In this document: positions 8,517-29,136 of the stretch, one piece after another | Numbering within the stretch: the stretch's first letter is position 1 | Layout: every line of letters begins with the position of its first letter | NCBI GenBank assembly: GCA_030671745.1 | Contig: DAOVHT010000001.1 | Span: 1 to 36,336 of the forward strand | Direction: 5' to 3' | DNA length: 36,336 nt | DNA from: Candidatus Nanohaloarchaea archaeon | GTDB lineage: Archaea > EX4484-52 > GLR71 | Notes under the pieces: generated by a model | Database searches by the model: none | Seen by the model: the letters and a program-made list of their open reading frames with translations, nothing else | Told to the model about the DNA's origin: nothing | Program-made: the position numbers and the translations under genes

Positions 8517-9161
8517 TCACTTCAAGAAAACTCCGGTGATGCCTTCCATGTTCTGTGTTTGCGCATCGGCAAGTGTTGCATCACCGACGAATATGTTTGC
8601 ATCATTGCTTCCACCACTCAGGAATCGTTCTGTATTATTATCATATACAGTGTCTACATAGATGCCTGGTTTATGCTCAATTGAGAAATCATATACTTTG
8701 AAATTCTGGTATGTCGACCCCCAGATTATGTTTGTATTGTTTCCCATCATCTTGCGGAAATCTTCATCCAAGTATATGTTTATATCTAGAACCTCGTTGT
8801 TGATTGTGGGGACTATATATATTTCAGCAATACTATCTTTTGGATCCATGTCTGGTGTTATGCGCAACAGTACAGATGTTTCATTTTCGTCATTCATGAA
8901 TGTGACTTCATTTAAAAAAGTGTAACCATTCAATATGCCTATATGTTCAAATAATATCTTATAACGTCCGTCATCATATTGCATGCTTGCTGCATTGTCG
9001 TCATATCCATTCCCCTCTGTAATTTCTGTTGTGTTTATAACAGGTTCTATTTTTGATGAGTCATTATAATTCATATAAATATTTACAAGTGATATCAACA
9101 TTAGCAGTATAAGCACACCAATAATCAATTGCTTCTTATTAATTTTATTTTGTATATTCAT
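8517..9161 (-). CDS. Signal-anchored hypothetical protein; last gene of the minus-strand pilin-like operon
   Basis: The ATG at 9161 gives MNIQNKINKKQLIIGVLILLMLISLVNIYM (the track start 9170 is GTG). It begins 12 nt after the stop of the upstream gene. Confidence 0.6.
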   Translation of the reverse strand: MNIQNKINKKQLIIGVLILLMLISLVNIYMNYNDSSKIEPVINTTEITEGNGYDDNAASMQYDDGRYKILFEHIGILNGYTFLNEVTFMNDENETSVLLRITPDMDPKDSIAEIYIVPTINNEVLDINIYLDEDFRKMMGNNTNIIWGSTYQNFKVYDFSIEHKPGIYVDTVYDNNTERFLSGGSNDANIFVGDATLADAQTQNMEGITGVFLK

Positions 9162-9173
9162 AAATATCACATT

Positions 9174-11765
9174 TTATCTGTTTGGCCATGCATTCCATTT
9201 ATCTACATAATGTGCAACAATTTCATATGACGCGCCCGTTATGAAATTAACAGTAGGGATTAAGACAACACCCACTCCTGTTGTAGCTAATGCAGTACTT
9301 GCAACAATGTCTATAGCAACTCCCACCAGCATAGCACTAGTTTTTATGGAACCACCCAACCAATCCACACCAGCATAGCAATAATTTGTACCCTCAAAGG
9401 AATTATCAAATTCGACATAGACTTTAAGTGCATTTATATCTGTGTTAACCTCTGTTTTCCATAGATTATTTAGGTTATAGGGTTCGCACTGTTTTATCCC
9501 ATTCCCATCAGCATCCATATATAATGTTGGTATTTCAACATAACTATTGCCCGTATCTACTATTTCTGAATTATGAACTTGTGCGGAATTAAATTGTACA
9601 TAATATTCGGTCCCATCTATCTCTTTTTCAGTTGCACCATTATAATAATCCGCTGCAGAATTGATTTCAACCGTACTGGACCAACTACTACTTTCATCCG
9701 GTTTATATTTAGTATCTGCACCTTCATACCTTCCTAATGTTGTAATCTGTGGGTGGGTTAGATAATAGTATTCTTCTTTAGGGTCATACGGCGTGTCTAT
9801 ATTATAATATGCACCTTGACATCTACCTCCTGCACTTACTTCCAAACCTTCATCAATACACTTGTTATCTGATACGATTTGATCACCCAAATTTAAATCA
9901 ATTTGATAACCTGTAGGACCTACCAAACCTAACTGTAGACCTGTGTCAGGGAATGTGATTGTTCCGTCAGCATTTGCAGTATTTTCCGTATACAACACAG
10001 TACTGTCTCCATTGGGATTACCAAAAAGATATCCATTTTGTGTACCACTATTTGGTGCATTTGGGTCATAATAATCAGGGAATGCCATACAATTATCCTT
10101 TGTCGTCCATGTAAGTTCTCTTTCGACTCCCATACTATTATAATTGACTTCAGTTGTTTTATTACAGCATACAAGGTCATTTTTACATTCAGTAACATAA
10201 CATCCCATTTTTTCATGTTTAACTATTACTTTTTCAGTCTTACATGGGCTTGCAAGGAAAAATCTAGTTGGTCTTTGTGGTTCATCCCTACTCAGAGCGA
10301 TATAATAATAATTTATTATATCTTCCAACTGTTCTGTCTGTACATTATAATAATTGCTTTTATACCCGAGTGCATTTATTCCAACAGCATTATATTTTTC
10401 ATTATCATTATCTATATATGCTGCACTAATACCGACACTCGTTACAAATGCACACAATAATGTGCCTTTACTTTTTATGCCTAACATAACTCCGCAAGTT
10501 GAAAATGCATTGACTGCCTCAGCATTATCTTCACTTAACACAGACTCAGGGATATTCTCAGTTACAAGATCAATAGCCCATAATTGAAATATGCCCTGTT
10601 CTAATGGTTTTGCCTGCATATAGAATTCAGAGAGTCTTTTTGCATCAGAAAGAATAATATCTTTTTGTGATTTAGCCAAATTATTATATATCTTTAATGA
10701 TTTTTCAATTTCTTCTGTCATCATTTTCTGTGTCCAACCACCACTCGCCAATCCACCAAACATAAAATCATCATATATATTTAATCGTCTTAAATTTTGC
10801 AATTTGATTAATGCATCTCCTTTACTTTCACTGACAACATATTCTAAAGAATTTCTATAATTTTTTGCAATGACTTCTCGTTGTAATTTATGTAGGGTTG
10901 GGTATTTTTGTTCCATTTTAGTTATTAATGTTTTTTCAAATTCTTTTCCATCAAATTTAGTATTTTTCATGAGGTATTCTTGACTATCTAATATGAGATC
11001 TTTTGTTAATTCTTCTCTGATCTCATCCTCTATTGCATCTTCAGCACCATAAAACACATAACGTATGATACCGTCTGCATTTTTTATACCATGTGATAAT
11101 ATTTTTTTTTCAAGTACCATTTTTCCATAAAGTTTTCCCGGAACTTTCAGTGCTTTAAGTATAAATTGTGGGTCTGTCATAGTGTTTACTATAGTTTTCA
11201 TAGATACTTTTATGCCTTTCCATCCGGCGTTAGTTATTTGCTTTGCTCCAGGAATCATATTTAGAGCACCTCCAAGCATTACACCTCCCCAACTGAAATC
11301 TTCAACTCTCACTTTCCAGTCTGCAGCCTGATCTTCTGGAAATGCCTCATAATATACAAGGCAATTTGGGTCACCCATTCCAGTAATCCATCCTTCTGGA
11401 TCACTTTCATCATATTCTGGATCTTTTGTCAATTCAAATCCTTGTACTTCACAATTATAGTTTTCATCTTCACCATAACACACCGCAACTTTTGTTCCGA
11501 ACTCTTTTTGCGCGGGACATAATTCAGTCACATCAACTCCCGCGTGCGACATACCCACACAATTAAGTGCATAAGCTAAAGCTTGTATGGATCTAATAGA
11601 ATTAGTATCACATCCAGGGGTCAGCTCAGGAAAAGCATAATTTGTCAAAAATTCAAACAACGGCTGACCGATATCTGATGTCACAAACATAGTGCCTGCC
11701 CCTAAGATAACAAGACCTATAATCAAGTTAGCGACCAATGGTAAGGTTCCTTTTTTATTTTTCAT
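9174..11765 (-). CDS. Large (863 aa) prepilin-like-leader protein with additional internal and C-terminal hydrophobic segments
   Basis: The leader is MKNKKG|TLPLVANLIIGLVILGAGTMFV. Further hydrophobic stretches are FSWGGVMLGGALNMIPGA, GVMLGIKSKGTLLCAFVTSVGISAAYI and SAMLVGVAIDIVASTALATTGVGVVLIPTVNFITGA. I recognise no catalytic motif. Confidence 0.8.
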   Translation of the reverse strand: MKNKKGTLPLVANLIIGLVILGAGTMFVTSDIGQPLFEFLTNYAFPELTPGCDTNSIRSIQALAYALNCVGMSHAGVDVTELCPAQKEFGTKVAVCYGEDENYNCEVQGFELTKDPEYDESDPEGWITGMGDPNCLVYYEAFPEDQAADWKVRVEDFSWGGVMLGGALNMIPGAKQITNAGWKGIKVSMKTIVNTMTDPQFILKALKVPGKLYGKMVLEKKILSHGIKNADGIIRYVFYGAEDAIEDEIREELTKDLILDSQEYLMKNTKFDGKEFEKTLITKMEQKYPTLHKLQREVIAKNYRNSLEYVVSESKGDALIKLQNLRRLNIYDDFMFGGLASGGWTQKMMTEEIEKSLKIYNNLAKSQKDIILSDAKRLSEFYMQAKPLEQGIFQLWAIDLVTENIPESVLSEDNAEAVNAFSTCGVMLGIKSKGTLLCAFVTSVGISAAYIDNDNEKYNAVGINALGYKSNYYNVQTEQLEDIINYYYIALSRDEPQRPTRFFLASPCKTEKVIVKHEKMGCYVTECKNDLVCCNKTTEVNYNSMGVERELTWTTKDNCMAFPDYYDPNAPNSGTQNGYLFGNPNGDSTVLYTENTANADGTITFPDTGLQLGLVGPTGYQIDLNLGDQIVSDNKCIDEGLEVSAGGRCQGAYYNIDTPYDPKEEYYYLTHPQITTLGRYEGADTKYKPDESSSWSSTVEINSAADYYNGATEKEIDGTEYYVQFNSAQVHNSEIVDTGNSYVEIPTLYMDADGNGIKQCEPYNLNNLWKTEVNTDINALKVYVEFDNSFEGTNYCYAGVDWLGGSIKTSAMLVGVAIDIVASTALATTGVGVVLIPTVNFITGASYEIVAHYVDKWNAWPNR

Positions 11766-11805
11766 GCGCTCATCAACTATTTGTATTTCTGATTATATAT
11801 TATTT

Positions 11806-12993
11806 TTATGTTTTATCTTCAATTACTATTATTATGTCATCTGAATCATAAGGGGTGCCAGTTGGACCATAAAATCGCTCGTCAAAATAATAGAATGGCT
11901 GAATTTCATATACATTATCTGTTAATAGTTTATGTGGTCCACTATTTTCGATACCACTTTGATTAATCATCAATCTATTTTTTATCATATACAAACAATT
12001 AGCGTCGGAATCACCTTTTGCCCAAGTAACACTATTGAATTCATCTGGGTTGATATCATCTTTTTTAGAATTTAAAAGATCGCAGGGGGATAAAGTATAA
12101 CTGAATGTATTTATTGAATTGAACCATTCATATAAATCTGCATCTGCCTTGGGTTTAATAAGAACTGTATTCTGGCACGCAAAATAACCATTATAATCGA
12201 TATTATCTGAATAGCTACCCATAAAATCATTTTTAAATTGGGTTGAACAGGAGGCGATATATGTATTTATATCATTTTTTGCATTGACATCAGTTTCAGC
12301 AGTTAAATCAATAATATTTGGTAAACTATAATCAATACCAACTCCACTAGAATCTCTCTCATCTCTACAGATACTAGCATCATTCAATCGTCCTTTACTT
12401 TGTGAAAATTTGTCTATGTTTGAATTTCGTGGTGGATTATACCAATTGATCAGGCTTTCACCTTTACAATATTCCATACGTGGATAAAAAAATAATGTAT
12501 CTCTACTAGAACCTGTCGTATCCCACAACCAACCTATTGTGCCTGTAAAAAGACCACCATTATTGCATACTGGTTGGTCATCCCACCAGAATACCATATC
12601 TACTTCATCTAATGTGTTAATTTGTGATGATGACCAAGCACTTTGATAACAGTCATCTACATGATTTTCCATAACTCCTTCAGTTGCATCAGTTATATTA
12701 TTGACCATATCTTCCCATGTTACGGTCCCAGTATACAATTCCTGTTTCAACCAACACGCTTTTTGACCGTTCCATGCAACCTTTGCAGCCAGTTGTATGT
12801 TTTTCATAAAGGTCTTATAATCGACAACACCAACATCACCAGGACAATAAGCGCCAGGCATAGGTATATTAAAATCTCTTGCGCTGTCAGTAATCTTCTT
12901 ACCAAGGGATCCGCCTGTCATCATCACTGCAGCAAGGACTATTACAAATATCATTATCGTCTGCATCATCGTTATAGTTCCTTTTTTACTCAT
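11806..12993 (-). CDS. Prepilin-like-leader secreted protein (395 aa), hypothetical
   Basis: The leader is MSKKG|TITMMQTIMIFVIVLAAVMMTGG, followed by a Cys- and Trp-containing extracellular-looking domain. ATG at 12993 lies 6 nt after the upstream stop. Confidence 0.8.
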   Translation of the reverse strand: MSKKGTITMMQTIMIFVIVLAAVMMTGGSLGKKITDSARDFNIPMPGAYCPGDVGVVDYKTFMKNIQLAAKVAWNGQKACWLKQELYTGTVTWEDMVNNITDATEGVMENHVDDCYQSAWSSSQINTLDEVDMVFWWDDQPVCNNGGLFTGTIGWLWDTTGSSRDTLFFYPRMEYCKGESLINWYNPPRNSNIDKFSQSKGRLNDASICRDERDSSGVGIDYSLPNIIDLTAETDVNAKNDINTYIASCSTQFKNDFMGSYSDNIDYNGYFACQNTVLIKPKADADLYEWFNSINTFSYTLSPCDLLNSKKDDINPDEFNSVTWAKGDSDANCLYMIKNRLMINQSGIENSGPHKLLTDNVYEIQPFYYFDERFYGPTGTPYDSDDIIIVIEDKT

Positions 12994-12999
12994 AAAAAT

Positions 13000-13191
13000 C
13001 TAACCTGAAAACACATTCTTTATCATCATGGGCACAAAACTGCCCCCATAATTCCCGAATTTTCTTGCCGCATAACTTGCGGCAACAATCAATATTGAAA
13101 ATGCTAAAAGACCCATACATATCTTGATGATAAGTTCTAGGTCCATCGCGCCTTTCCGACTCTTGATAAGATAATAGGTAATCTCTAACAT
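13000..13191 (-). CDS. Mini prepilin-like protein (63 aa; about 49 aa after the predicted cleavage)
   Basis: The ATG at 13191 gives MLEITYYLIKSRKG|AMDLELIIKICMGLLAFSILIVAASY, with Glu at +5. The track start 13209 is TTG. Confidence 0.6.
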   Translation of the reverse strand: MLEITYYLIKSRKGAMDLELIIKICMGLLAFSILIVAASYAARKFGNYGGSFVPMMIKNVFSG

Positions 13192-13209
13192 ACATTCACC
13201 GTTATTCAA

Positions 13210-13716
13210 TCATGGGTCTTGAATCTCATCTGCACAGGTCTTTGTAAGTGCACCACTACTGTCATTATTTACCTGACAACATTGATTATCATTTCCTGTA
13301 TCAAGCACAAGCCACCACTCTCTATTATTTGGACCACTTTTAGTTTTTGGATCATACTTAAACGCAGCCATCGTGCATTCTACAGGACTACATTCACTGA
13401 TATCGCCCACACATTTTTCAGATACACAAGCATGCGGGGGATTGGGTATAGTCTCATTAGGTGGGAATAATGTGCAATAGGTCTCATTGCCACACTTGTT
13501 CATACAATCCTCTGTATTGCATGCACCTACAAGACATTCAGCACTAGTATTACTTACGCATGGGTCAACAATAGATATGCAGCATTGTCCCTGATTATCA
13601 TAGTCGCATACTTGCTCTGTCTTCATGTTCATGAAGTTCATAAGCATGAATCCAATTATCATTACAAGGAACAGCGACATGATAACATAAAAGATTGAAA
13701 GTCCACTGCGCCTCAT
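13210..13716 (-). CDS. Prepilin-like-leader Cys-rich secreted protein (168 aa from ATG 13716)
   Basis: The leader is MRRSG|LSIFYVIMSLFLVMIIGFMLMNF, followed by a domain with about 20 Cys. The track start 13803 is TTG and lies within promoter-like AT-rich sequence. A TATA (TTATATAC, minus strand) at 13738-13745 is about 26 nt upstream of ATG 13716. Confidence 0.7.
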   Translation of the reverse strand: MRRSGLSIFYVIMSLFLVMIIGFMLMNFMNMKTEQVCDYDNQGQCCISIVDPCVSNTSAECLVGACNTEDCMNKCGNETYCTLFPPNETIPNPPHACVSEKCVGDISECSPVECTMAAFKYDPKTKSGPNNREWWLVLDTGNDNQCCQVNNDSSGALTKTCADEIQDP

Positions 13717-13737
13717 ATAGTATTCTTGTCTTTCTTT

Positions 13738-13790
13738 GTATATAACATTTTTGTCTTTTTTTACCTCAACAATCACAAACAAATATATTA
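13738..13790. promoter_or_regulatory. Compact divergent promoter with two TATA boxes, each about 26 nt from its ATG (leaderless-type)
   Basis: gtatataac (13738-13746) serves the minus-strand gene starting at 13716. aaatatatta (13781-13790) serves the plus-strand gene starting at 13813. Confidence 0.5.
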
Positions 13791-13812
13791 ATGAACACAC
13801 CAAATCTTAATC

Positions 13813-14014: not shown

Positions 14015-14284
14015 ATGAGAAAAGGAATGACAATCGCGATAACTCTTGTAATGGCAATGCTTGTGGCATTGGTTGTAGCCTTTGTCTTGATATCGATGTT
14101 CAGCACATCGATGGATAAGGGTAGTAAGGGGTTGACTGGTTCTTTAGACTCGACAACAGATGATGTAACTGGATTGGCTTGCAGTACCCATTGTGCGACC
14201 TGCTGTATAACGCAGGATGAAGATTATTGCGAAGATACGGATCATGGTGCGCCCTCAGATGCTTGCGAATGTCCAAATTGTTAA
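14015..14284 (+). CDS. Small prepilin-like protein with an 8-Cys C-terminal module (C-x3-C-x2-CC family)
   Basis: The ATG at 14015 gives MRKG|MTIAITLVMAMLVALVVAFVLISMF (the track start 14006 is GTG). The tail is CSTHCATCCITQDEDYCEDTDHGAPSDACECPNC. Confidence 0.75.
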   Translation: MRKGMTIAITLVMAMLVALVVAFVLISMFSTSMDKGSKGLTGSLDSTTDDVTGLACSTHCATCCITQDEDYCEDTDHGAPSDACECPNC

Positions 14285-14296
14285 GGTTTGATACTT

Positions 14297-14542
14297 ATGC
14301 GAAAAGCTATGACACAGTCAATATCTCTTATAACTGTCATAGTCGTAGGTCTTTTTGTGGTTGGAATTCTTATTATCATGGTTGGTGACAAGATGGGCAA
14401 GGCATCCGATGCGATTGGTCAGAATACAGATGTCACAGAAGACAGCCTTGAATGCAAGACTGAGTGTTCAGCCTGTTGTGCGACAGGGTATGGCGATACT
14501 GTCTGTGAGCGCCAGTTCATAGCCTGTGATTGTAGTTGTTGA
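14297..14542 (+). CDS. Small prepilin-like protein with an 8-Cys C-terminal module; tandem paralogue of 14015-14284
   Basis: The ATG at 14297 gives MRKA|MTQSISLITVIVVGLFVVGILIIMVG (the track start 14288 is TTG). An AAGGT SD-like sequence lies at 14283-14287. The tail is CKTECSACCATGYGDTVCERQFIACDCSC. Confidence 0.75.
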   Translation: MRKAMTQSISLITVIVVGLFVVGILIIMVGDKMGKASDAIGQNTDVTEDSLECKTECSACCATGYGDTVCERQFIACDCSC

Positions 14543-14691: not shown

Positions 14692-14931
14692 TCATTTCTT
14701 TTTTCCTAAAAAGTCTAAGAATTCATCTCTGTTCATATTAAGGTCCTGTTTGACAATTTTATTGAGTAATCCTCTATCCAGTTTTTCACCCGGGTGTACA
14801 GGTACTACTGTTGTTCGTCCATCTATATGTTCAAAGAATTGGTGGCTTCCATGTTGCCGTTTAAATTCAAAGCCCAATCTATTAAGTATTTTTATTAATT
14901 CTTTGGCAGTTATAAGTGGCCTTTTGACCAT
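14692..14931 (-). CDS. hicA: HicA-family mRNA interferase toxin
   Basis: KELIKILNRLGFEFKRQHGSHQFFEH..GRTTVVPVHPGEKLDRGLLNKIVKQ matches the HicA/YcfA pattern, including the GSH motif. It lies 2 nt downstream of hicB. Confidence 0.9.
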   Translation of the reverse strand: MVKRPLITAKELIKILNRLGFEFKRQHGSHQFFEHIDGRTTVVPVHPGEKLDRGLLNKIVKQDLNMNRDEFLDFLGKKK

Positions 14932-14933
14932 AT

Positions 14934-15158
14934 TTATGCCTCTACTTCAAGCTGTTCAAGACCTAGAAATTTTGTTTTGATTATATTGGCTTTATTTTCC
15001 ATCAAGTATAATTCTATTGCTTCTTTTGTTCTTTTGATTAGTTCATCGCGTGTTTTTGCCTGTGTGTGGCATCCTGGAAGTCCAACGACTTCTGATATCA
15101 GATATCCATCTTCCCCTTCTTCGATGATTATTGTATATTTTTCACCCATATAAATCAT
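14934..15158 (-). CDS. hicB: HicB-family antitoxin (UPF0150-type); start uncertain (ATG at 15158 or 15149; the track start 15194 is TTG)
   Basis: KYTIIIEEGEDGYLISEVVGLPGCHTQAKTRDELIKRTKEAIELYL is the typical HicB N-terminal fold signature. Confidence 0.85.
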   Translation of the reverse strand: MIYMGEKYTIIIEEGEDGYLISEVVGLPGCHTQAKTRDELIKRTKEAIELYLMENKANIIKTKFLGLEQLEVEA

Positions 15159-15222
15159 ATGGTGTTTCTTTTTTATAAATCTTCTCATCTCCAAAAATTA
15201 TATATAATCAACAATCTAAAAG

Positions 15223-15522
15223 ATGTATATAGTGTTTACGATGGCATTCTTAAAATCAAGAAAAAAGGGTGAATTGACAATTGAGACAGTCATAATCATA
15301 GTCTTATTTCTTGCAGTATTAGCTATTGTGATATTGGTTGTCAGTTCATTGACCGGTAAAGGTTCAGATTCAATGGGGACAACCATTGAGACCACAGGCG
15401 CTGGCGCACTCTGCGAGATCGAATGCATGAAGTGTTGTAGTAGTCAAGAAAAAGATTGTGAACCAATAGGTTCTTGCTGTGTTGATAAAGATGACCAAAA
15501 AATTGGTTGCCAATTGACTTAA
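15223..15522 (+). CDS. Small prepilin-like protein with an 8-Cys C-terminal module (C-x3-C-x2-CC family)
   Basis: The leader is MYIVFTMAFLKSRKKG|ELTIETVIIIVLFLAVLAIVILVV, with Glu at +1 and +5. The tail is CEIECMKCCSSQEKDCEPIGSCCVDKDDQKIGC. The TATA ttatatataa at 15198-15207 is about 20-25 nt upstream. Confidence 0.75.
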   Translation: MYIVFTMAFLKSRKKGELTIETVIIIVLFLAVLAIVILVVSSLTGKGSDSMGTTIETTGAGALCEIECMKCCSSQEKDCEPIGSCCVDKDDQKIGCQLT

Positions 15523-15535
15523 ATTCTCTTAAATC

Positions 15536-16804
15536 TCAAACTCTCAACAAAAATTTCCAAACAGGAACAATCTCAATATCATCAACAGTCCCTTCCTCTT
15601 CAAGTGTTACAACCATTGACTTTTCTACCTTATCTCCGAATTTGTCCAGATATTTTCTGATTTGTTTAACCGATTTCCTGCTCTGCTTAACTTCAATAAT
15701 CTCCTGTTTATCATCTTTCAAAAGCACAAAATCAATCTCGAAACCATTCCTATAAAAAAACTTAGAGTCTGTATATGTGGCCACCATATTTTCAAGCAAG
15801 TATGGTAAAAGACTATCAATATCCTGATTGAATGCGAATGCAATGTTGGGTGTATAAAGATATGCTTTTTTCATCTTTCTCATGCTGGCAATCGGACTGC
15901 CTCTATAATTGAATACTGGTTTTACTAAAAGTCCGAATTCAAGATATTCAAAATAATTGGCAATCGTTCTCTGATCCTTACCGAGGTCTTGCGCAATCTC
16001 TTTATAATTGACAATCATGCCTGGCTTTTTGCAGATGATATATACAAGTGTCTTGAGCAGTTCAACATCTTTTATCTCAAATTCTGCAGGCAAATCTTTG
16101 TATATGATTCGTTCTATGACATTGTTCAATATGTACCTTTTAGCGAATTCCTCATCAGTTTCATCATAAAGTTCGGGAAACATACCATATTTAAGATATC
16201 TATAAAACAATGGAATCAATTCTTTTTTCCATAGATCTGGATTGGTCTTTATCACTTTAAGATCTTTGCCGTTCAGCTCAATAAATTCTTCAAAAGATAA
16301 GGGTTTCATCTGAAAATCAATTATTCTGCCTGCAAGACTTTCAGTTGACTTTTTTCTCAGGCTGACTGATGCCGAACCAGATATGAATAATTTGACATTT
16401 GGATAAAGGTCATAGATAACTTTAATCTTGTTCTCCCAGTCATCAACTTTCTGTATCTCGTCCAAGAATATATAGACTTTACCCTCTATATCATCAAAAC
16501 TTTTTCCCAATATAGTTTTCTGATACGTTTCAAGAACATCTCTGAATTCAAACACTACTTCATCAAAAGAGAAATATAATACATTTTTTTGGTCAGCATC
16601 TGCAAGTATTTTCTGTATTAATTGGTACATTGTAGTTGTTTTTCCGACACGTCTTAATCCCCAGACTAACATTACTTGTTTTTTATCAATATATTTCTCA
16701 ATCTCAAAATATATGCGCCTTTTATACGGTTTAAGTAACGTCTCCTTTACTGTTCCCGTTTTCCACCACGGATTGAATTTTACTAAGTAATCAATAGGGG
16801 TCAT
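15536..16804 (-). CDS. AAA+ ATPase of the AAA_14/DUF4143 type
   Basis: It has the N-terminal FNPWW motif, a Walker A (GLRRVGKTT) and a Walker B-like IFLDEIQ. The C-terminal region has the DUF4143-like pattern. Length is 422 aa. Confidence 0.9.
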   Translation of the reverse strand: MTPIDYLVKFNPWWKTGTVKETLLKPYKRRIYFEIEKYIDKKQVMLVWGLRRVGKTTTMYQLIQKILADADQKNVLYFSFDEVVFEFRDVLETYQKTILGKSFDDIEGKVYIFLDEIQKVDDWENKIKVIYDLYPNVKLFISGSASVSLRKKSTESLAGRIIDFQMKPLSFEEFIELNGKDLKVIKTNPDLWKKELIPLFYRYLKYGMFPELYDETDEEFAKRYILNNVIERIIYKDLPAEFEIKDVELLKTLVYIICKKPGMIVNYKEIAQDLGKDQRTIANYFEYLEFGLLVKPVFNYRGSPIASMRKMKKAYLYTPNIAFAFNQDIDSLLPYLLENMVATYTDSKFFYRNGFEIDFVLLKDDKQEIIEVKQSRKSVKQIRKYLDKFGDKVEKSMVVTLEEEGTVDDIEIVPVWKFLLRV

Positions 16805-16826
16805 GTATATATTATTGCGTCCAAAC

Positions 16827-16834
16827 TATATAAA
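16827..16834 (-). promoter_or_regulatory. TATA box (TTTATATA on the minus strand) 23-30 nt upstream of the ATPase ATG
   Basis: The plus strand reads tatataaa at 16827-16834. The ATG is at 16804, so the spacing fits a leaderless archaeal promoter. Confidence 0.45.
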
Positions 16835-16836
16835 TT

Positions 16837-16891
16837 TAATGACATTGCAACGTCATTATTTCTGGGTTTTAATGACATCACAACGTCATAA
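16837..16891. promoter_or_regulatory. Two tandem copies of a 22-bp inverted repeat (operator-like) just upstream of the TATA box
   Basis: TAATGAC-ATTGCAAC-GTCATTA (16837-16858) and TAATGAC-ATCACAAC-GTCATAA (16870-16891). The arms are 7 bp, the spacers 8 nt, and the centre-to-centre distance is 33 bp. Confidence 0.5.
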
Positions 16892-16945
16892 CTTTTTGAA
16901 TTAAATGCTTAATCGTTATCGGGGCTCTTCCGCATCAACTCAATT

Positions 16946-17788
16946 TCAACTTTTTTTCTTCCTTTCCAACCTCTTAACTTTTTCAGGCACAGTCAAGTAA
17001 TTGTCGCTTGAACTTACTTTCTCATTTGTCTCAGATTCCAATTCCTTTCGCGCATTGCCTGCAATCGAACCTCCTTTTTTTGAAGCAATCTTGTTCTTAT
17101 CAAATTCTATCGCATCCGAAGATTTTGCAATGGCAGTGGTGGAAGCTTCACCAAGCATAGTAAAAATCAACTCTAAACCATCCATATGGTCTCTTAGATT
17201 CTGTTTTTCAAGTCCTTTAAACTCTTTGTATTCAGAAGGTGTCATATCAAAAGTTGCTTTACTAATCTCAGCCGTTAAAATTGAAAACTCTTTATTGGTT
17301 CTCACTCCCCGATTAGTCCATTCATCTGTTAATTCTTCTCTTACTGCAATACCTCTGATTCTTTTCTCAATCCACTCATCCGAATAACCTTTTTGTCGAT
17401 ATAGTTCTTTCATCCTTTTTTGAGCCAATTCTGGATCTTGAATTTCCTGTATTCTTTCATAACCTACTTTAGCGAGCCATTTTTTGAAAGGTTCGGCCTT
17501 CTTTGATGGTATTGATTGTATTATACGAAATAATAATTTTGTATTGGCACAATCAGTATTTCTTAATTTTCCATCTTCTGCGGAAAGTTTCAACTGTACG
17601 ATTTTATCGTACGATTCAAAACCTTCTATATTTAATTTTGATTTCAAATCAGACCAATATCTCTTAGGTATAGAACTCTCCGTTAACGCTTCTACTACAT
17701 CAACAACAGAAAAATACCATTGTTCTTCATGCCAGATTCTCCTGATATCCTTATTTTCAAACACGACCAATGCCTTATCTTTATCCAT
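16946..17788 (-). CDS. Bro-N domain protein (antirepressor/DinD-like), paralogue 1
   Basis: The N-terminus KALVVFENKDIRRIWHEEQWYFSVVDVVEAL is Bro-N-like. The conserved core is SKKAEPFKKWLAKVGYERIQEIQDPELAQKRMKELYRQKGYSDEWIEKRIRGIAVREELTDEW. The ATG at 17788 lies 5 nt after the upstream stop (the track start 17797 is GTG). Confidence 0.85.
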   Translation of the reverse strand: MDKDKALVVFENKDIRRIWHEEQWYFSVVDVVEALTESSIPKRYWSDLKSKLNIEGFESYDKIVQLKLSAEDGKLRNTDCANTKLLFRIIQSIPSKKAEPFKKWLAKVGYERIQEIQDPELAQKRMKELYRQKGYSDEWIEKRIRGIAVREELTDEWTNRGVRTNKEFSILTAEISKATFDMTPSEYKEFKGLEKQNLRDHMDGLELIFTMLGEASTTAIAKSSDAIEFDKNKIASKKGGSIAGNARKELESETNEKVSSSDNYLTVPEKVKRLERKKKS

Positions 17789-17793
17789 ATCAA

Positions 17794-18654
17794 TCACCTT
17801 AATTTCTTTCGTTTTTGACTTTCCGGTTCATCCAGATAATTGTCTTTTGAAATGATAGTCTTATCTAATCGTTTTTCAATATCTTTTCTTGTTGCACCTG
17901 CAACATCGCCACCATCATGAGCATCTTTTTTTATTTTAGCGAATTCTTGTGAATTTCGTTCTTTTGTAAATTTTGTAGTTGTGGCTTCACCTAACATAGT
18001 CAGTATAAGTTCAATGTCATTCATATGGTCTCTTAGATTCTGTTTTTCAAGTCCTTTAAACTCTTTGTATTCAGAAGGTGTCATATTAAAAGTGGCTTTG
18101 CTGATTTCAGCCGTAAGGATTGAAAATTCTTTATTAGTTTTTACACCACGATTGGCCCATTCATCAGTCAGTTCATCACGAACTGCGATTCCTCTAACTC
18201 TTTTTTCAATCCACTCATTCGAATAACCTTTCTGTCGATAAAGCTCTTTCATCCTTTTTTGTGCAAGTTCTGGGTCTTCAATCTCTTGTATTCTCTCATA
18301 ACCAACTTTAGCGAGCCATCTTTTGAAAGGTTCTGCTTTTTTAGATGGTATCGATTGAATTAAACGTAAAAGTCCCATAATATTCCAACACAATATCAAT
18401 TGCGGACCACCTTTAGTATCGAATTCAAATCCAAGGGGGGGTACAATTTGTCCCCCCCCTTTGAACACATCATTTAAAGAGTTATCTCTTTTTCTAAGTT
18501 TTTTTAAGTAGTCTGTAGGATTTACAGATCCTGTAAGTACCGTCACAACATCCTTTATTACAAACCACCATTGATTATCATGCCAAACTCTTCTGATATC
18601 CTTATTTTCAAACACAACCAATGCTTTATCTTTGTCTTTATTCATCTTAATCAT
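17794..18654 (-). CDS. Bro-N domain protein, paralogue 2 (start refined to ATG 18654)
   Basis: Alignment with paralogue 1 (MIKMNKDKDKALVVFENKDIRRVWHDNQWWFVIKDV) supports this start. The TATA CATATAAG (minus strand) at 18683-18690 lies about 30 nt upstream of 18654. The extra 30 N-terminal codons in the track ORF have no counterpart in paralogue 1. Confidence 0.85.
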   Translation of the reverse strand: MIKMNKDKDKALVVFENKDIRRVWHDNQWWFVIKDVVTVLTGSVNPTDYLKKLRKRDNSLNDVFKGGGQIVPPLGFEFDTKGGPQLILCWNIMGLLRLIQSIPSKKAEPFKRWLAKVGYERIQEIEDPELAQKRMKELYRQKGYSNEWIEKRVRGIAVRDELTDEWANRGVKTNKEFSILTAEISKATFNMTPSEYKEFKGLEKQNLRDHMNDIELILTMLGEATTTKFTKERNSQEFAKIKKDAHDGGDVAGATRKDIEKRLDKTIISKDNYLDEPESQKRKKLR

Positions 18655-18861
18655 CCTCTTTGGATGATTTTCATTTTTCAGCTTATATGCCTGTCGGGAG
18701 AGAGCCGTGCCGGTATGCCAATAGAATCCACAATTGATGCACAAAATTGTTGTTTAAGCACTCATTTTGCGCTTAATTTAGATTTAGTGCGTTTATCAAC
18801 GAAACCTTTATAAACTCTGATAACTAATATATACTACTTACAAGTTACACAAATTATAAAT

Positions 18862-19904: not shown

Positions 19905-20171
19905 TTAACAAATACAATTACAGTTTTTATAATATGGTAAATTACATTCTGTAACTGGGTCTTCTGCTCTACAACAACTCCAACACAACTGCTGGCACTC
20001 ACTCGCCCCACCAGCCCCCTCAATCTTCGTCCCGCCGATATCAACAAGATCAGCGCCAGAGCGCGTTATGAGTATCAGCATAATCGCCAGCGCAACAAGC
20101 AGCACGATAAGAATTACGATCGTGTTGATAGGCAATTCCATGCCCTTGCGCTTCTTAGAGAAAAGATTCAT
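19905..20171 (-). CDS. Small prepilin-like protein with an 8-Cys C-terminal module (C-x3-C-x2-CC family)
   Basis: The leader is MNLFSKKRKG|MELPINTIVILIVLLVALAIMLILI. The tail is CQQLCWSCCRAEDPVTECNLPYYKNCNCIC. A TATA (GATATAAACC, minus strand) at 20191-20200 is about 22-28 nt upstream of ATG 20171. Confidence 0.8.
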   Translation of the reverse strand: MNLFSKKRKGMELPINTIVILIVLLVALAIMLILITRSGADLVDIGGTKIEGAGGASECQQLCWSCCRAEDPVTECNLPYYKNCNCIC

Positions 20172-20220
20172 AACAATTATTATCGATTCAGGTTTATATC
20201 TGTTTTTGGTGTGATTACTT
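20131..20220 (-). repeat. Direct repeat copy 1: promoter plus the first ~13 codons of the pilin-like gene at 19905-20171
   Basis: 20161-20220 matches 20621-20680 at 57 of 60 positions by my count. 20131-20150 also matches 21845-21864 at 16 of 20 positions. Confidence 0.85.
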
Positions 20221-20471
20221 ATATACTCGTTTTCTGGTATCTATATTTATGACAACAACAAGAAGATTATTGTAATCAACTCTGTAAAGTATACGAAAAT
20301 CTCACACCCTGATTCTAAACACTTTCTCTTTTTGACCCATTATTCTTTTTGAATCATGTGGTATCGGGTCCTCTGCAAGTTTTTCAATGGATTCAAGAAT
20401 TCTCAGAGTCATATTCTTATCAAGTTTTTAAGTGATTTCTGGATTGGTTTATCTAAAAATATCTCAAACAT
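20215..20471 (-). pseudogene. relE: RelE/ParE-family toxin pseudogene (one frameshift plus one in-frame stop)
   Basis: The minus strand reads MFEIFLDKPIQKSLKNL, then needs a 1-nt insertion to continue as (D)KNMTLRILESIEKLAEDPIPHDSKRIMGQKEKVFRIRV*DFRILYRVDYNNLLVVVINIDTRKRVYK. The stop (TGA) replaces the Gly of the conserved RiRvGdyRiiY motif. It is below the track threshold because it is broken. Confidence 0.8.
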
Positions 20472-20473
20472 AT

Positions 20474-20587
20474 TCAAAGACCCAATTCTTTCTTAAACTC
20501 AGAAATAGATACAAGTTTACCTTCTTTTTCATTCTTGAAACTTTCATCTACAAGAACTTTATCTTTCTCGCTCAATATAGTATCCAT
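20474..20587 (-). CDS. Short (37 aa) antitoxin-like ORF immediately upstream of the relE remnant; possibly itself truncated
   Basis: MDTILSEKDKVLVDESFKNEKEGKLVSISEFKKELGL. Its stop TGA (20474-20476) lies 2 nt before the relE ATG (20471), which is the typical type II TA arrangement. Confidence 0.5.
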   Translation of the reverse strand: MDTILSEKDKVLVDESFKNEKEGKLVSISEFKKELGL

Positions 20588-20599
20588 GTCAATTATGGC

Positions 20600-20680
20600 A
20601 TACCCTTCTCGCTTCTTAGAAAAAGATTCATAACAATTATTATCAATTCAGGTTTATATCTGTTTTTGATATGATTACTT
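20600..20680 (-). repeat. Direct repeat copy 2: degenerate promoter plus frameshifted leader remnant (MNLFLRSEKGMP*)
   Basis: It is about 90% identical to 20140-20220 with two 1-nt indels. The TATA-containing part is retained. The remnant ORF stops after 12 codons. Confidence 0.85.
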
Positions 20681-20761: not shown

Positions 20762-21670
20762 ATGTTTATGTTTATAGAAATAAGAAAACAAGGAAAAAAG
20801 AAAAAATATTATCTTGTGCATACATATAGATCTGCTGGAAAAGTCAAAAGAATATCCAAGTATCTTGGTTCTGATATAGATGATAAGGAGTTGCAGAAAC
20901 TAAAAAGTATTGCCGAAAAAAGAATTATTGAGGATTTAAAAGAAAGAAATATTTTAGAATTTGAATTAAATGATGACGAAATAAAGTATTATACTAACTA
21001 TGACTCTAAGATAAAGATAAAACATTTGCAAGGTATTGATTGGACTGATTTTAAAAAACGTTTTACATACGATACAAATGCAATAGAAGGTTCTACAGTT
21101 ACCTTGATTGATGCAGAAGAACTGTTGGGACAAAATAAAAAACCAATAAATAATGACGAGCTTGAAACAGTAAGTGTCTCTGAATCTGTAGATTTCATTA
21201 GAAACACTCAAAAAAAAATGTCAATTGAATTGATTAAAGAAATCCATAACATATGTTTTAATAAAACCAAGCCATTCGCTGGCAAGATAAGGGATGTACC
21301 AGTTGTTATAAAAGATTCTTATGGGAATATTATCCATGAAGGCGCTCCAGTTGATTTGATTGACAAATTACTGACAGAATTATGTGTTTGGTATGAAAAA
21401 CATATAGATATATATCCTCCATTACTTATTTCAGCATTAGTCCACAATCAATTTGAAAACATACATCCGTTTCAGGATGGTAATGGTCGGGTTGGAAGAT
21501 TGTTACTCAATTATGTGCTGATAAAACATAATTATCCACCTATAAACATATTATTGGAAGATCGTGATATCTATTATGAATCTCTAAAGCATTTTGATGA
21601 TAATGGTAATATTGTACCTACTTTAAAATTTTTGATAAAATTATATAAAAAACAATACAATATTTCATAA
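20762..21670 (+). CDS. Fic/DOC family protein (probable AMPylase or related NMP-transferase)
   Basis: The canonical Fic motif HPFQDGNGRVGR (HxFx[DE]GNGRxxR) is present. Length is 302 aa. A second ATG at 20768 is an alternative start. Confidence 0.9.
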   Translation: MFMFIEIRKQGKKKKYYLVHTYRSAGKVKRISKYLGSDIDDKELQKLKSIAEKRIIEDLKERNILEFELNDDEIKYYTNYDSKIKIKHLQGIDWTDFKKRFTYDTNAIEGSTVTLIDAEELLGQNKKPINNDELETVSVSESVDFIRNTQKKMSIELIKEIHNICFNKTKPFAGKIRDVPVVIKDSYGNIIHEGAPVDLIDKLLTELCVWYEKHIDIYPPLLISALVHNQFENIHPFQDGNGRVGRLLLNYVLIKHNYPPINILLEDRDIYYESLKHFDDNGNIVPTLKFLIKLYKKQYNIS

Positions 21671-23527: not shown

Positions 23528-26500
23528 ATGCGACTCTTAGCAACCCTGATAGCATTTGCACTGATCCTTTCAGTCCCATTCATATCAGAAATATCCGCAA
23601 CCGCAACATCATCTGAAAACACACTTAAAATAGTAGCACAGCAAGACGACAAAGTCAGAGTCATAATAACTTTCAAAGACACGCCAAAGACTGCAAAAGA
23701 TAGCATATTCAATACCCTAGGCATCCCGCAACAAGACCCGAAAGAGAAGATAAAGGACAAGATAAAAACTGATGGACAACTGAAGCACGAATTCCAGACA
23801 ACAGACAGTGTTTCTGCAACGATTACTCAAGAACTGCTTGACGAACTGAACTCAGACCCGTCGATTGCATACATAGAACAAGATAGACCGGTGCAAGCAT
23901 TCCTATCTCAGAGCGTACCGTTAATAAACGCTGATCAAGCCTGGCAACAGCAGATGCAGGACACAGGTCTCACCGGCAAAGGGACGACCGTCTGTGTGAT
24001 AGATACTGGGATTGACTACACACATCAGGATCTTGGAAACTGCACAGTATCAACATTTAATTTAAATGGCGTGAATGAAAGCCATATTTTGGAATCTGCA
24101 CACAATTACACTAATAATTTTGATCATACCTGGTCTATAACTAAACCTGGATACACAGACATTGCAGTCTATTTCAGAAACATCAGTCTGGAATACAAAG
24201 GCGAGGTTGATGGTTCAGACACAGGTGATAGGATAATTATCTATGATGGTGATATGGTTGAGATTGCAGTATATCATGGAATTGATGGTGTAATTGAAGA
24301 CCTGTGGACACCATATTCTGAGGGTGACACAATCTACATACGGTTGGTGACTGATTCCGGGTTTAGGGATTACGGTTTTTATATTGATTCTGTCTTGAAT
24401 GGCACCACAGACACTACTTATGACTGGAGCAACTGTTCAAAGACAATAGGTGGTTGGGATTTCGTCAATGGTGATGGTGACCCGATAGATGATGATTTTC
24501 ACGGCACCCATGTTGCAGGGATAATCGCTGCAGATGGAACAGTGACTGGTGTCGCACCGGACACAGGACTGATCGCAGTAAAAACTCTGGATGCAGGTGG
24601 TACTGGTTGGTTTTCAGATACATTGTTAGGTATTGAATATTGTATAAATAATTCTGATAGATATAACATATCAGTTATCAGCATGAGTCTTGGGGCTATA
24701 GATACATATTATGATTCTTATTGTGATGGTGACAGTCCATCGATGTCAAATGCAATAAACACTGCAGTTGCAAAAAACATCTCGGTCATAATTGCAAGTG
24801 GGAATAATCATCCGCCAACAGGCATCAGTTATCCTGCCTGCATAGAGAATGCAACCCGTGTAGGCTCGACATCAAAATCAGATGTCATTGAAAATTACAC
24901 TCAACGAAGTGTTAATTTCAAAGATCTGCTTTTGGCTCCCGGTGGTAATATATATTCTACAATGCCTGCGGATAACTACGCTACTAAATCAGGAACTTCA
25001 ATGGCGACACCGCACGTTTCAGGTGCCACCGCCATATTAGTCCAGGCCTATCAAGACCGGTTCGGGAAAAGACCGACCCCTGCATACATAGAATATGTCC
25101 TGAACAAGACAGGAATTCTGATCTATGACAGCCAGACCGGGCTGAACTTCTCGCGCATTGACGTCCTAGCGGCAGTATTGTACATCAACACACCACCGAA
25201 CATTACAGACATCTACAACAACATAACTGAAGACGGTTCACAAGAAATAACCATCAATGAGACCGACTCAATACTCTTCAACCTGACAGTGTTGGCGCCA
25301 GTCAATTACACCTGGAAAAAGAACGGCACGACAGTGGGCGCAAACCAGTCTAACTGGACCTTTGACACAACTTATGATGATGCAGGATTCTGGATAATTG
25401 AAGCAATAGTAAATAATGACAATGGCACAAGAACCAAAGAGTGGAATGTGACAATAGATGATGTCAATCGCGCACCGACCATCACATCAATCTCAAACAT
25501 AACGATGGACCTCCAGGATCAGATAACCATCAACATCTCAGCAAACATATCAGACCCTGACAGCGACACATTGACGATAACAACCGATGACCCCGGAAAC
25601 ATAACTGTAGAGAATCACACATTAGTATTCCATTACACCGAAAATGTCACAGACAAGCCCGTCACGATAACTGTCAACGACTCAGACCTGACAACCAACA
25701 TTACAATCTACATAAACATCACAGATGAATTACTCAACATCACAGACACTTACAACAACATAACCGGCGACAACAGTTCAACCCTTACGATCAATGAGAC
25801 CGATTCAGTATTCTTCAACATATCAACAGATGTCCCGGTGAATTATACTTGGTATATTAATGATACAAACATCGGAAATAATTTCAACAATTATACATTA
25901 ACGACCGGTTTTGATGACGCCGGAACAAAGAACATTTCAGTCAACGTTTCAGACAATGAAAGCCATAACACTTTTAGGTGGACTGTCACAATCCTGAACA
26001 AGAACCGCCAACCAATAATCACAACAGTATCAAACATATCAATGGAACTCCAGAATCAGACAACAATCAACATCTCAGGCAACATATCAGACCCTGACAA
26101 TGACAATTTAACGATAACGACTGACGACCAAGAAAACATAACAATAGAAAACCACACATTGATATTCAATTACACAGAGACTGTAACGGACAAACCCGTC
26201 ACGATAACTGTCAACGACTCAGACCTGACAACCAACATTACAATCTACATAAACATCACGGATACGACCGCACCGACAATAACAATAGATTCACCCACAA
26301 ACAAGACCTACAACACGACCGATATCAACATATCGATCAATGCAGATGAACCATTGGACTGGTGCGCATACTCCTTAAACGCCCAACCAAACATAACGAT
26401 GAACTGCACAGAAAATAGTAACATGACGGCCATTGAAAATCTCAACAACCTGACTCTCTGGGCGAACGACACATCCGGAAATCTGAACCGCACAGAGGTC

Positions 26501-27544
26501 TTTTTCACAGTTGACACAATCTCCCCAAATATAACAATTACAGCATTAAACTACACGACAGACGATTATCTTTACATAAACCTTTCAGTTTCAGAAACAC
26601 CAGACACCTGCATATTGAATTGGCAGGATGAAAACATCACGATGAACAGGACCGGAACAAAATGTGACATCAACAAGACTTCAATTTCTCCAGGTATCTA
26701 CAATTACACAATCTATGTCAATGACACGGTGGGCAACACAGGTTCAATCACCGACTTACAGTCAGAGATCTATTACTGTTTTGTTTCAGTCACCGACTGG
26801 ACATCCTGCGTCTCAAGCTCAAGGACGAGAATTCACACATACCGAGATTGCACAACTTACACAGAGACTGAGAGCTGTCACTCAAGCAGCGGTGGCGGTT
26901 CGTCATCATTTTCATTTGTACCGCTCCCTGTTATATCTAATGACACATTGAACGAAACATTGACAAATATTACAGATGACCCATTAAATGACACTGAAAC
27001 AGATTGGGATCAGAATGATACAACACTGATAACGAACAGAACACAAGACGATATTCTTGATTCTGATGATACTAAAGAAACAGATGGAAATAAAGTGGGC
27101 ACTCACACGATTTCCGATGATGGATACAAAGATTTAGAAGATATAGACGATGGTTTCTTGGGGATAAGATTGTTAGATGATATTCTTTTTGAAAACAGTT
27201 TGATTTCAAAAATAAAAGATAGATTGGGTATTGATTCCTCAGAAGATAACACTTTTAATTCTATTGTGTTGCTGTTTACAATAATTGTTATCTTTGCTAT
27301 AATTGGTATTTCTTATAACTTCAATAGATCTTACAAGAGAAAACACAAACAAAAACAGACATTGGATAATGGTACTGTCTTAAATACAGATGATGAGAGC
27401 AATCAACCCTCGCCAATCTCACCCAAACAACAAGAGATTGTATCCGACCTCTCTCAGAAAACCTATTTAAACAACACCGGACAAAATAATAATGATAATA
27501 GTCCTAAGGATGTATATTTAGATGGTGTCAAGTACAAAGAATAG
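23528..27544 (+). CDS. Large membrane-anchored subtilisin-like protease (S8) with a propeptide, a CUB-like insert, tandem repeats and a cytoplasmic tail
   Basis: The signal peptide is [24 protein letters not shown]. An I9-like propeptide (VRVIITFKD) follows. Catalytic motifs are [10 protein letters not shown] (Asp), [10 protein letters not shown] (His) and [12 protein letters not shown] (Ser). About 169 aa separate Asp and His. The C-terminal TM segment is [23 protein letters not shown], followed by a tail of about 90 aa. Confidence 0.93.
25202..26275 (+). repeat. Two tandem 537-nt (179-codon) repeat units inside the protease gene
   Basis: Unit 1 starts with ITDIYNNIT (25202) and unit 2 with ITDTYNNIT (25739). 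A 65-nt tract is perfectly identical between 25658-25722 and 26195-26259. Confidence 0.9.
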
Positions 27545-28812: not shown

Positions 28813-29136
28813 ATGGTGTTGATTATGATAAAAAACAATAACCGAAAAGGTCAGATGTCTATGGGTACAGTAGTTGCCTTAGTGATTGCATTTATAGTGA
28901 TATTGGTTATTGTGGCGATTGCAACTGATTTCGGTGAGAGGACAAAAGACACCGCACCATTCGACGATGCAAAAGTAAAAGCGGAAGACGCGATGAATGA
29001 TAAGAGATGTGCAATGGTCTGCACTGCCTCATGCATTGACAAGGCATATGTGATTGATAGTGACTGTGCAGATTATGTGCGTGACTGTTGTGATTGCGAC
29101 AGCGTAGATGATATAACTGATGGGTGTGATTCTTGA
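28813..29136 (+). CDS. Small prepilin-like protein with an 8-Cys C-terminal module (variant pattern)
   Basis: ..IKNNNRKG|QMSMGTVVALVIAFIVILVIVAIA. The tail is CAMVCTASCIDKAYVIDSDCADYVRDCCDCDSVDDITDGC. The ATG at 28813 lies 2 nt after the upstream stop (the track start 28798 is GTG; ATG 28825 is also possible). Confidence 0.75.
   Translation: MVLIMIKNNNRKGQMSMGTVVALVIAFIVILVIVAIATDFGERTKDTAPFDDAKVKAEDAMNDKRCAMVCTASCIDKAYVIDSDCADYVRDCCDCDSVDDITDGCDS

Follow-up and report, generated by a model that had tools for sequence, protein, structure and literature searches.

What are five small, cysteine-dense proteins doing in the genome of an uncultured archaeon, and what is the knot of eight cysteines at their C-terminus? 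The question arises in a stretch of 36,336 nucleotides from Candidatus Nanohaloarchaea archaeon (contig DAOVHT010000001.1, positions 1 to 36,336 of the forward strand; hereafter the window), in which an earlier note had described five open reading frames (ORFs), here called G1 to G5, whose products end in an eight-cysteine module. The note left three explanations for this module: a disulfide-locked tip or decorating subunit, a metal-binding site, or a released toxin- or bacteriocin-like peptide. DPANN archaea rely on physical contact with a host, and their surface filaments and adhesins are almost wholly ‘dark matter’. Our analysis makes it probable that G1–G5, encoded by an uncultured DPANN (Nanobdellati) archaeon, are paralogues specific to its lineage that serve as archaeal type IV pilin-like filament subunits, each with a four-disulfide mini-head.

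Five ORFs share one layout

Exactly five ORFs of the window encode the same succession of parts: a short leader, rich in K/R, that ends in [KR][GA] (RKG, RKA or KKG), an uncharged hydrophobic stretch of 24–27 residues, a polar linker of 15–25 residues and a tail of 29–42 residues with exactly eight cysteines. All five lie at the positions that the earlier note gave, and their cysteine spacings match those it listed:

14015..14284, plus strand: G1, pilin-like protein of 89 residues; leader MRKG, hydrophobic helix, 34-residue tail C-x3-C-x2-CC-x7-C-x11-C-x-C-x2-C; orthologues P0004, P0020, P0022–P0026 and P0030
14297..14542, plus strand: G2, pilin-like protein of 81 residues; leader MRKA, 29-residue tail C-x3-C-x2-CC-x8-C-x6-CxCxC; orthologues P0005, P0007 and P0021
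15241..15522, plus strand: G3, pilin-like protein of 93 residues; leader MAFLKSRKKG, mature start ELTIE, tail CEIECMKCC-x6-C-x5-CC-x9-C
19905..20171, minus strand: G4, pilin-like protein of 88 residues; leader MNLFSKKRKG, 30-residue tail C-x3-C-x2-CC-x8-C-x7-CxCxC
28813..29136, plus strand: G5, variant of 107 residues; leader ...NNNRKG, mature start QMSMG, 42-residue tail C-x3-C-x3-C-x10-C-x6-CCxC-x9-C; orthologues P0008 and P0016–P0018

For G3, the ORF first described as 15223–15522 was borne out, but its start was not: the ATG at 15241 is better supported by the orthologues and by the position of an A/T-rich TATA-like box. Leader and mature start meet at MRKG followed by MTIAITLVMAMLVALVVAFVLISMF in G1, MRKA followed by MTQSISL in G2, RKKG followed by ELTIETVIII in G3, KRKG followed by MELPINTIV in G4 and NRKG followed by QMSMGTVV in G5. 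G2 is the best-conserved of the five, its synteny being kept in the related contigs L001 (KA24) and L003 (GLR72). Most G3 orthologues (P0006, P0009, P0010, P0012–P0014) bear a C-S-T-P-P(-P) extension from the last cysteine onward, possibly an O-glycosylation or linker motif; unlike them, the G3 of the window ends in CQLT (15508–15522).

The ORFs are constrained genes of a lineage-restricted family

A six-frame scan for stop-to-stop ORFs of at least 60 residues with at least eight cysteines within the last 50 returned seven, namely G1–G5, one S8-protease tail and one antisense ORF, where first-order Markov simulations predict 0.055 on average. A hidden Markov model (HMM) of the tail, run against the six-frame translation of the window, recovered G1–G5 only (E 2e-13 to 2e-8; next best 0.3). 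We then compared codons with those of orthologues fetched from related contigs. In within-orthogroup pairs, the N-part (leader, helix and linker) showed a ratio of nonsynonymous to synonymous substitution rates (dN/dS) of 0.04–0.21 at dS 0.3–1.5 in all five orthogroups, and G1–G5 are therefore translated and constrained genes. Pairs of the window copy with its orthologues gave 0.06–0.18 for the N-part and 0.04–0.12 for the tail of G1; for G2, both parts gave 0.07–0.15.

When 5.8 billion clustered proteins were searched with a profile, 32 relatives emerged, all from uncultured archaea (labelled DPANN, Nanobdellati, Nanohaloarchaea, Aenigmarchaeota or plain archaeon), which sort cleanly into the same five orthogroups and, once aligned, have exactly eight tail cysteines in 32 of 32 cases. 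They come from independent assemblies (NCBI, ENA, JGI and Logan) in which synteny is conserved. When one genome per species was scanned with orthogroup 3, 4 of 185,579 GTDB species proved to be carriers. JGI metagenome contigs scanned with G3 and G2 gave no confirmed relatives, and viral contigs of IMG/VR gave no match, which leaves a viral origin of the family unsupported.

Of G1–G5 and at least 20 neighbours scanned, none of the pilin-like proteins had a significant match in Pfam, NCBIfam or PHROGs. A sequence-profile search of the PDB gave only non-significant matches of the transmembrane-helix type (archaellin, E=0.61; PilE1, E=2.3; defensin-1 6b9w, E=7.2), and Foldseek found 0 matches in the PDB to the model of the tail. 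Searched exhaustively with HMMER for a profile of the tail alone, 1.84 billion representatives gave family members, two satellite-repeat translations (P0043 and P0044, which we rejected as junk) and nothing else. The earlier note had not recognised the module as a named family and had proposed to search archaeal genomes and metagenomes with an HMM, holding its idea open to refutation by a known domain family; what the search found is the family itself, confined to one lineage. Judged by sequence, the 8-Cys family is an orphan, restricted to about 4–6 related uncultured archaeal species.

A pilin-like architecture

Archaeal type IV pilins carry a class III signal, a charged leader that is cut by an A24 peptidase to leave a hydrophobic N-terminus of ~20 residues (PMC4858521), and those of the DPANN ‘dark matter’ often escape similarity searches and are recognised by signal peptide and context (Makarova et al., PMC6393860). 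In all of G1–G5, a positively charged leader with [KR]-[GA(S)] at its end precedes at least about 20 uncharged, hydrophobic residues. Within orthogroups, identity is 80–92% in the N-part and 30–77% at non-Cys positions of the tail, with indels in the tail only; a conserved N-part with a variable tail is the pattern typical of pilins. AlphaFold2 (AF2) predicted for G1 a long N-terminal helix (residues 3–44), with a predicted local distance difference test score (pLDDT) of 83–90 across residues 11–30, and a second helix (residues 53–66) that bears C56, C60, C63 and C64. In addition, the N-terminus of a neighbouring 332-residue protein weakly matches the pilin UpsA (NF046073, E=0.0025, far below the family cutoff).

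Several points weigh against this assignment. Curated HMMs for pilins and class III signals (Pfam Pilin_N and Class_IIIsignal, and the pilin models of NCBIfam) match none of the five at E<=1, the PDB yields nothing significant, and no A24 prepilin peptidase, assembly ATPase or TadC platform gene lies in the window or the fetched flanks. The AF2 models are of low confidence (pLDDT 64 for the full-length protein and 69 for the tail alone), too low for a disulfide map. Eight cysteines also fit two tetrathiolate metal sites, and names of metagenome-assembled genomes (MAGs; for example CSMAG_1717) give an unverified hint of anoxic sediment or seep, where extracellular disulfides would need protection or dedicated oxidation. 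Because the curated models do not claim G1–G5 and the window holds no assembly genes, we call them pilin-like for their architecture and context and do not count them as proven members.

On this pilin-like reading, the pathway starts from the one part that can be seen directly, the class-III-type signal with its short K/R-rich leader ending in [KR][G/A] on each protein. The protein would insert into the membrane N-in/C-out, an A24 prepilin peptidase would cut after the G or A, and the 24–27-residue hydrophobic helix would become the mature N-terminus, packing into the core of a surface filament with other leader-bearing products of both loci described below. Where pilins usually have a beta-rich head, the subunit would expose a C-terminal mini-domain of about 29–47 residues. 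Its first four cysteines, C1–C4 (i, i+4, i+7, i+8), would line one face of a short, weakly predicted helix and be linked by four disulfides to the four cysteines of the C-terminal segment (C...CxCxC or CC...C). This would yield a stiff knob that resists proteases and tolerates variation in its loops, on filaments that, by analogy with what is expected of an episymbiont, most likely serve adhesion or host contact.

Eight cysteines, most likely four disulfides

Cysteine parity is an established proxy for disulfide bonding. The number of cysteines is even in 14 of 14 complete leader-bearing proteins of the window (18, 10, 16, 8 in each of G1–G5, then 8, 4, 2, 6, 2 and 2); cytoplasmic proteins of the window have mixed counts (0, 1, 1, 1, 2, 2, 3, 3, 4, 9 and 18). 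Orthologues of the leader-bearing proteins conserve their counts, with 26 even versus 4 odd in L001, L003, L006 and L007. Such even, conserved numbers favour disulfides over metal sites, and they suggest that the exoproteome of this DPANN lineage is disulfide-rich. G5 lacks the second cysteine of the helical CC and gains one beside the downstream pair, so that the total stays at eight while positions shift, as a pairing constraint predicts.

Both AF2 runs, full-length and tail-only, place C1–C4 in one helix, where their spacing puts them on one face; the alternate residues of the downstream CxCxC would fall on one face of an extended strand. The tail thus resembles in its logic a cysteine-stabilised helix (C-x3-C with C-x-C), a likeness of architecture that fold and sequence searches do not support. 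Most likely, the eight cysteines form four disulfides. Among the options of the earlier note, a disulfide-locked surface subunit is the best supported, given the strict eight, the even conserved counts and the single predicted helix for C1–C4, with nothing to favour a tip or decorating position over the shaft. Its metal-site and released-peptide options are weakened, and both are weighed below as lower-rated alternatives.

Two conserved loci of pilin-like genes

The module was said to stand behind a class-III-type leader and helix within loci of pilin-like genes, which our comparison confirms. G1–G5 and about 12 neighbours form two conserved operon-like loci in which nearly all proteins have class-III-like N-termini:

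8517..13803, minus strand: divergent arm of locus 1, encoding proteins of 217, 863 (18 Cys), 395 (10 Cys), 69 and 167/197 residues (16 Cys)
13210–13713, minus strand: pilin-like protein of 167 residues with 16 Cys (9.6%), divergent from the operon of the 62-residue ORF, G1 and G2; conserved in L001 and L003
13813..14001, plus strand: Cys-free mini pilin-like ORF of 62 residues; leader ...RVRKG, mature start QDIGIS, mature form about 47 residues
27522..36336, plus strand: locus 2, eight consecutive pilin-like genes for proteins of 332, 87, G5, 83, 436, 192, 255 and more than 1436 residues

In locus 1, the minus-strand genes (217, 863, 395, 69 and 167/197 residues) are followed by the divergent plus-strand series of the 62-residue ORF, G1, G2 and G3. 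Most proteins of the minus-strand arm begin with a [KR]G leader and a hydrophobic helix, and none has a Pfam match. The same order is found in KA24 (L001, after the isoleucyl-tRNA synthetase gene, IleRS) and in GLR72 (L003), the latter with an extra tandem copy of G1. The 62-residue ORF, first in the operon with G1 and G2, is preceded about 25 nt upstream by a TATA-like box and is conserved in L001 and L003. A homologue search for a broadly conserved major pilin gave only 2 database clusters for its product, equally lineage-restricted; the protein is a candidate minimal core subunit. In L002 (CSMAG_1717), only a gene for a 347-residue membrane protein stands between G3 and G4, which assigns G4 to locus 1 and makes G1–G4 one ancestral locus split by insertions.

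G5 is the third gene of locus 2, whose order is conserved in L006–L008 (S8 protease, 332, 87, G5, 83, 436, 192, 255 and ~1,530 residues). The giant last ORF (32027–36336, plus strand) exceeds 1,436 residues where it runs off the end of the window and measures 1,530 in L006; it has a class-III-like leader and 34–37 Cys and may be the adhesin or tip protein of the locus. Two S8 subtilases are also encoded on the plus strand: one (4–1287) is cut by the start of the window and has a Cys-rich repeat tail with 26 Cys, and the other (23528–27544; 1,338 residues, with cadherin-like and Big_9 domains) lies directly upstream of locus 2 and is conserved in relatives. Searched with the tail HMM against all window ORFs, the module was absent from the 16-Cys 167-residue protein, the S8 tail and the giant ORF. 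The five copies had been called scattered, but G1–G4 derive from a single locus and G5 belongs to a second.

Tail evolution and alternative explanations

Nonsynonymous changes accumulate in two of the five tails. In G3, the ratio of nonsynonymous to synonymous changes is 27/4 in the tail versus 8/11 in the N-part (Fisher p=0.0013), and in G4 it is 16/3 versus 5/11 (p=0.0022), the cysteines being invariant in both. Identity in G3 is 50% in the tail loops versus 86% in the N-part, with indels confined to the tail; across six G4 orthologues, it is 92% in the N-part versus 30% in the tail loops. The tails of G1, G2 and G5 are under purifying selection (omega 0.04–0.3). Hypervariability between cysteine positions, proposed earlier as a check, is thus seen in G3 and G4 but not in the other three. 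The change in the G3 and G4 tails fits exposed loops that are recognition-related or vary antigenically; it also fits a toxin that is released.

The released-peptide alternative takes G1–G5 as precursors of released or membrane-tethered disulfide-knot peptides, with leader, helix and linker as an export or anchoring pro-region. Once cleaved off, for instance by the S8 subtilases encoded nearby, the tail would work against hosts or competitors as a toxin, a defensin-like peptide or a signalling peptide. G3 and G4 do show a conotoxin-like combination of conserved N-part, hypervariable tail and invariant Cys framework, yet the same conservation pattern is normal for pilins, and purifying selection on the tails of G1, G2 and G5 argues the other way. 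The tail is only about 29–47 residues long and relatives, too, have an S8 protease gene just before locus 2, but the genes lie in operons of leader-bearing, structural-looking proteins and not beside immunity, transporter or maturation genes. The motif C-x3-C...C...C-x-C is the cysteine-stabilised helix signature of cysteine-stabilised alpha-beta (CSalpha-beta) defensins (framework in PMC5234102); against this, G3 has CC in place of CxC, the defensin match in the PDB has E=7.2, Foldseek found none and AF2 predicts no beta-strands. We consider this explanation unlikely.

A metal-binding tail is, in our assessment, distinctly unlikely. The tail would then hold Zn, Fe or Cu in a pair of tetrathiolate sites, form a cluster like that of metallothioneins or share Fe-S clusters between subunits; exposed on a filament or on the membrane, it would serve to capture metals, attach to minerals or transfer electrons in anoxic sediment. 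The arithmetic is right, with eight cysteines supplying 2 x 4 ligands; the CC, CxC and CxxC spacings are reminiscent of metallothioneins, the tails are acidic, and thiols would stay reduced if the habitats are reducing, as the MAG names hint. The even, conserved Cys counts of the neighbours (2, 4, 6, 10, 16 and 18) nevertheless argue for a general disulfide regime of the exoproteome. The module has no conserved His, Asp or CPxC knuckles, it holds aromatic and bulky residues, and C1–C4, predicted helical, make a poor geometry for a single tetrahedral site. C-x3-C-x2-C is the radical-SAM cluster spacing, but it is kept in four orthogroups and replaced by C-x3-C-x3-C in G5, and we know of no route by which Fe-S clusters are loaded outside the cell. 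Searches of Pfam, NCBIfam and the PDB gave no match to metallothionein, Zn-ribbon or Fe-S (ferredoxin, radical-SAM) family models, and neither CxxC knuckles nor CxxCxxCxxxCP or CxxxCxxC is conserved in all members. A radical-SAM or ferredoxin-like Fe-S interpretation of C-x3-C-x2-C was rejected for an extracellular module whose spacing G5 does not keep and which matches no family.

Quite improbable, too, is that the knob is an effector, whether displayed on a pilus or released by a protease. It would then be an archaeal, convergent cysteine-stabilised-helix peptide of defensin- or toxin-like kind, whose G3 and G4 loops recognise or breach the envelope of a host archaeon in DPANN episymbiosis; if so, the loci would form a ‘pilin-launched knottin’ system with conotoxin-like diversification. 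A more exotic version would be a redox-active or metal-cluster-bearing filament head.

Very improbable is the notion of precursors of lanthipeptide-like ribosomally synthesised and post-translationally modified peptides (RiPPs), in which tail Cys and Ser/Thr are turned into thioether rings. Ser/Thr residues abound beside Cys in the G1 and G2 tails (CSTHCATCC, CKTECSACC), but it is the 8 Cys that are conserved and not the Ser/Thr, and a 25-residue transmembrane helix is unlike a RiPP leader. No LanB, LanC, LanM, LanKC, radical-SAM, YcaO or other maturase was found in the window or in L001, L003 and L006–L009, and we rejected RiPP precursors on the absence of maturases from both loci and their syntenic counterparts. 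Finally, that the ORFs, small, unannotated and without named homologues, are spurious, as the earlier note had allowed, or an assembly artefact is ruled out by dN/dS far below 1 at saturated dS and by the 32 homologues with conserved synteny in independent assemblies, set beside a chance expectation of 0.055 ORFs.

Inserted cassettes and the duplicated G4 leader

Copies of the module had also been noted beside toxin-antitoxin (TA) and Fic cassettes, and these neighbours are real. Between G2 and G3, HicA/HicB is found in the window (14692–15194, minus strand; HicA match E 5e-20, HicB-like antitoxin E 2e-5, just below the Pfam cutoff), MNT/HEPN in KA24 (L001, 10436–11432) and a 466-residue ATPase in GLR72 (L003, 3631–5031). 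The slot is an insertion hot spot across which the flanking pilin genes stay syntenic. Between G3 and G4, the window has an AAA_14/DUF4143 ATPase and two tandem BRO-N paralogues of 283 and 316 residues (15536–18744, minus strand), situated between G3 and the gene for a protein of about 346–347 residues. Because this block is absent at the equivalent position of L002, it looks like a mobile or defence insertion.

Upstream of G4, the window has a decayed ParE-like cassette, and relatives have HicAB or other TA genes. The duplication of the G4 promoter and leader that had been reported was recovered as a direct repeat of ~83 nt (20138–20220 versus 20598–20680, minus strand) with a 60-nt core at 95% identity, spanning the TATA box and codons 1–11 of G4. 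The distal copy reads as follows:

20598..20680, minus strand: copy of the promoter and codons 1–11 of G4, with a 1-nt deletion that shifts the frame; precedes the decayed ParE-like TA cassette

Between the repeats lies an insert (20221–20597) with a small ORF that resembles an antitoxin gene and a ParE-like toxin gene broken by a stop (PF05016, E=2e-7); a TA cassette appears to have inserted at, or captured, the G4 promoter and leader. The repeat had been read as active turnover of the family, which it does not show: it flanks a decayed TA cassette, what turns over are the inserted cassettes, and the five orthogroups are stable apart from the additional G1 of GLR72. An intact Fic gene is present in the window (20762–21670, plus strand; E 1.5e-18); in CSMAG_1717, a C-terminal 97-residue remnant (L002, 2603–2896) occupies the same position before the prolyl-tRNA synthetase gene (ProRS). 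Since mobile cassettes were inserted into a pilin locus, the apparent scattering beside TA and Fic genes implies no functional link.

Significance and comparison with known systems

Class III leader, helix and 8-Cys tail together provide a searchable signature for a lineage-specific set of pilins. The head module is, in sequence terms, unprecedented and unusually compact; at about 30–45 residues with probably four disulfides, it is to our knowledge among the smallest and most Cys-dense heads of any type IV pilin-like protein. If confirmed, it would mean that a head as small as a knottin can ride on a pilin scaffold and that the exoproteome of these organisms is rich in disulfides, possibly even in reducing habitats; it would also provide a natural case of strongly varying loops on an unchanging Cys framework, which may determine host specificity. 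The family is narrow in scope, with about 4–6 species, and orphan, fast-evolving pilins are expected in DPANN, so these results refine known biology and do not add a new principle.

Likeness to CSalpha-beta peptides (insect, plant and fungal defensins and short scorpion toxins) lies in C-x3-C on a helix with a downstream C-x-C, in three to four disulfides within 30–45 residues (inferred for G1–G5) and in hypervariable loops on a fixed Cys framework. Of the published framework, C1...C2-x3-C3...C4...C5-x-C6 (PMC5234102), C-x3-C...C...C-x-C is present in G1, G2, G4 and G5, G3 has CC for CxC, and C1 is absent, no Cys preceding the helix. G1–G5 differ further in the extra CC, the fusion to a pilin helix and their archaeal origin, and the fold of a helix on an antiparallel beta-sheet was not recovered, as AF2 gave helices only (pLDDT 64–69), Foldseek 0 matches and defensin-1 6b9w E=7.2. 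Saccharibacteria, ultrasmall bacterial episymbionts, use type IV pili to bind their hosts (PMC9894109, PMC12206443), a functional analogy only, with bacterial machinery and pilins. Bacterial type IVa pilins resemble G1–G5 in that a disulfide staples the exposed, variable C-terminal segment (the D-region), but theirs is one disulfide per head of ~100 residues against a probable four in ~30, their leader is bacterial with E5 and N-methylation, and the heads are not homologous.

Among archaea, Cys-rich components of type IV pili are already known: Thermoproteales subclade 4E has such pilus-locus proteins with multiple conserved cysteines, presumed to form stabilising disulfides (PMC4858521). Those proteins belong to a phylum of hyperthermophilic Crenarchaeota, are larger and share no sequence similarity with G1–G5, and a compact 8-Cys tail is not described for them (PMC4858521). 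Archaeal type IV pilins and class III proteins at large (M. maripaludis EpdE/MMP1685, Sulfolobus UpsA/AapB, Haloferax PilA1-6; census in PMC4858521) are unlike G1–G5 in matching the Pilin_N, Class_IIIsignal or arCOG-derived families, in having a beta-sandwich head or none where G1–G5 have the eight-Cys module, and in the assembly genes that the window lacks. They share with G1–G5 the short charged leader ending in [KR][GA] and the ~25 uncharged hydrophobic residues behind it, together with small size, several paralogues, clustering with larger leader-bearing proteins and a conserved helix that carries a variable, exposed C-terminus.

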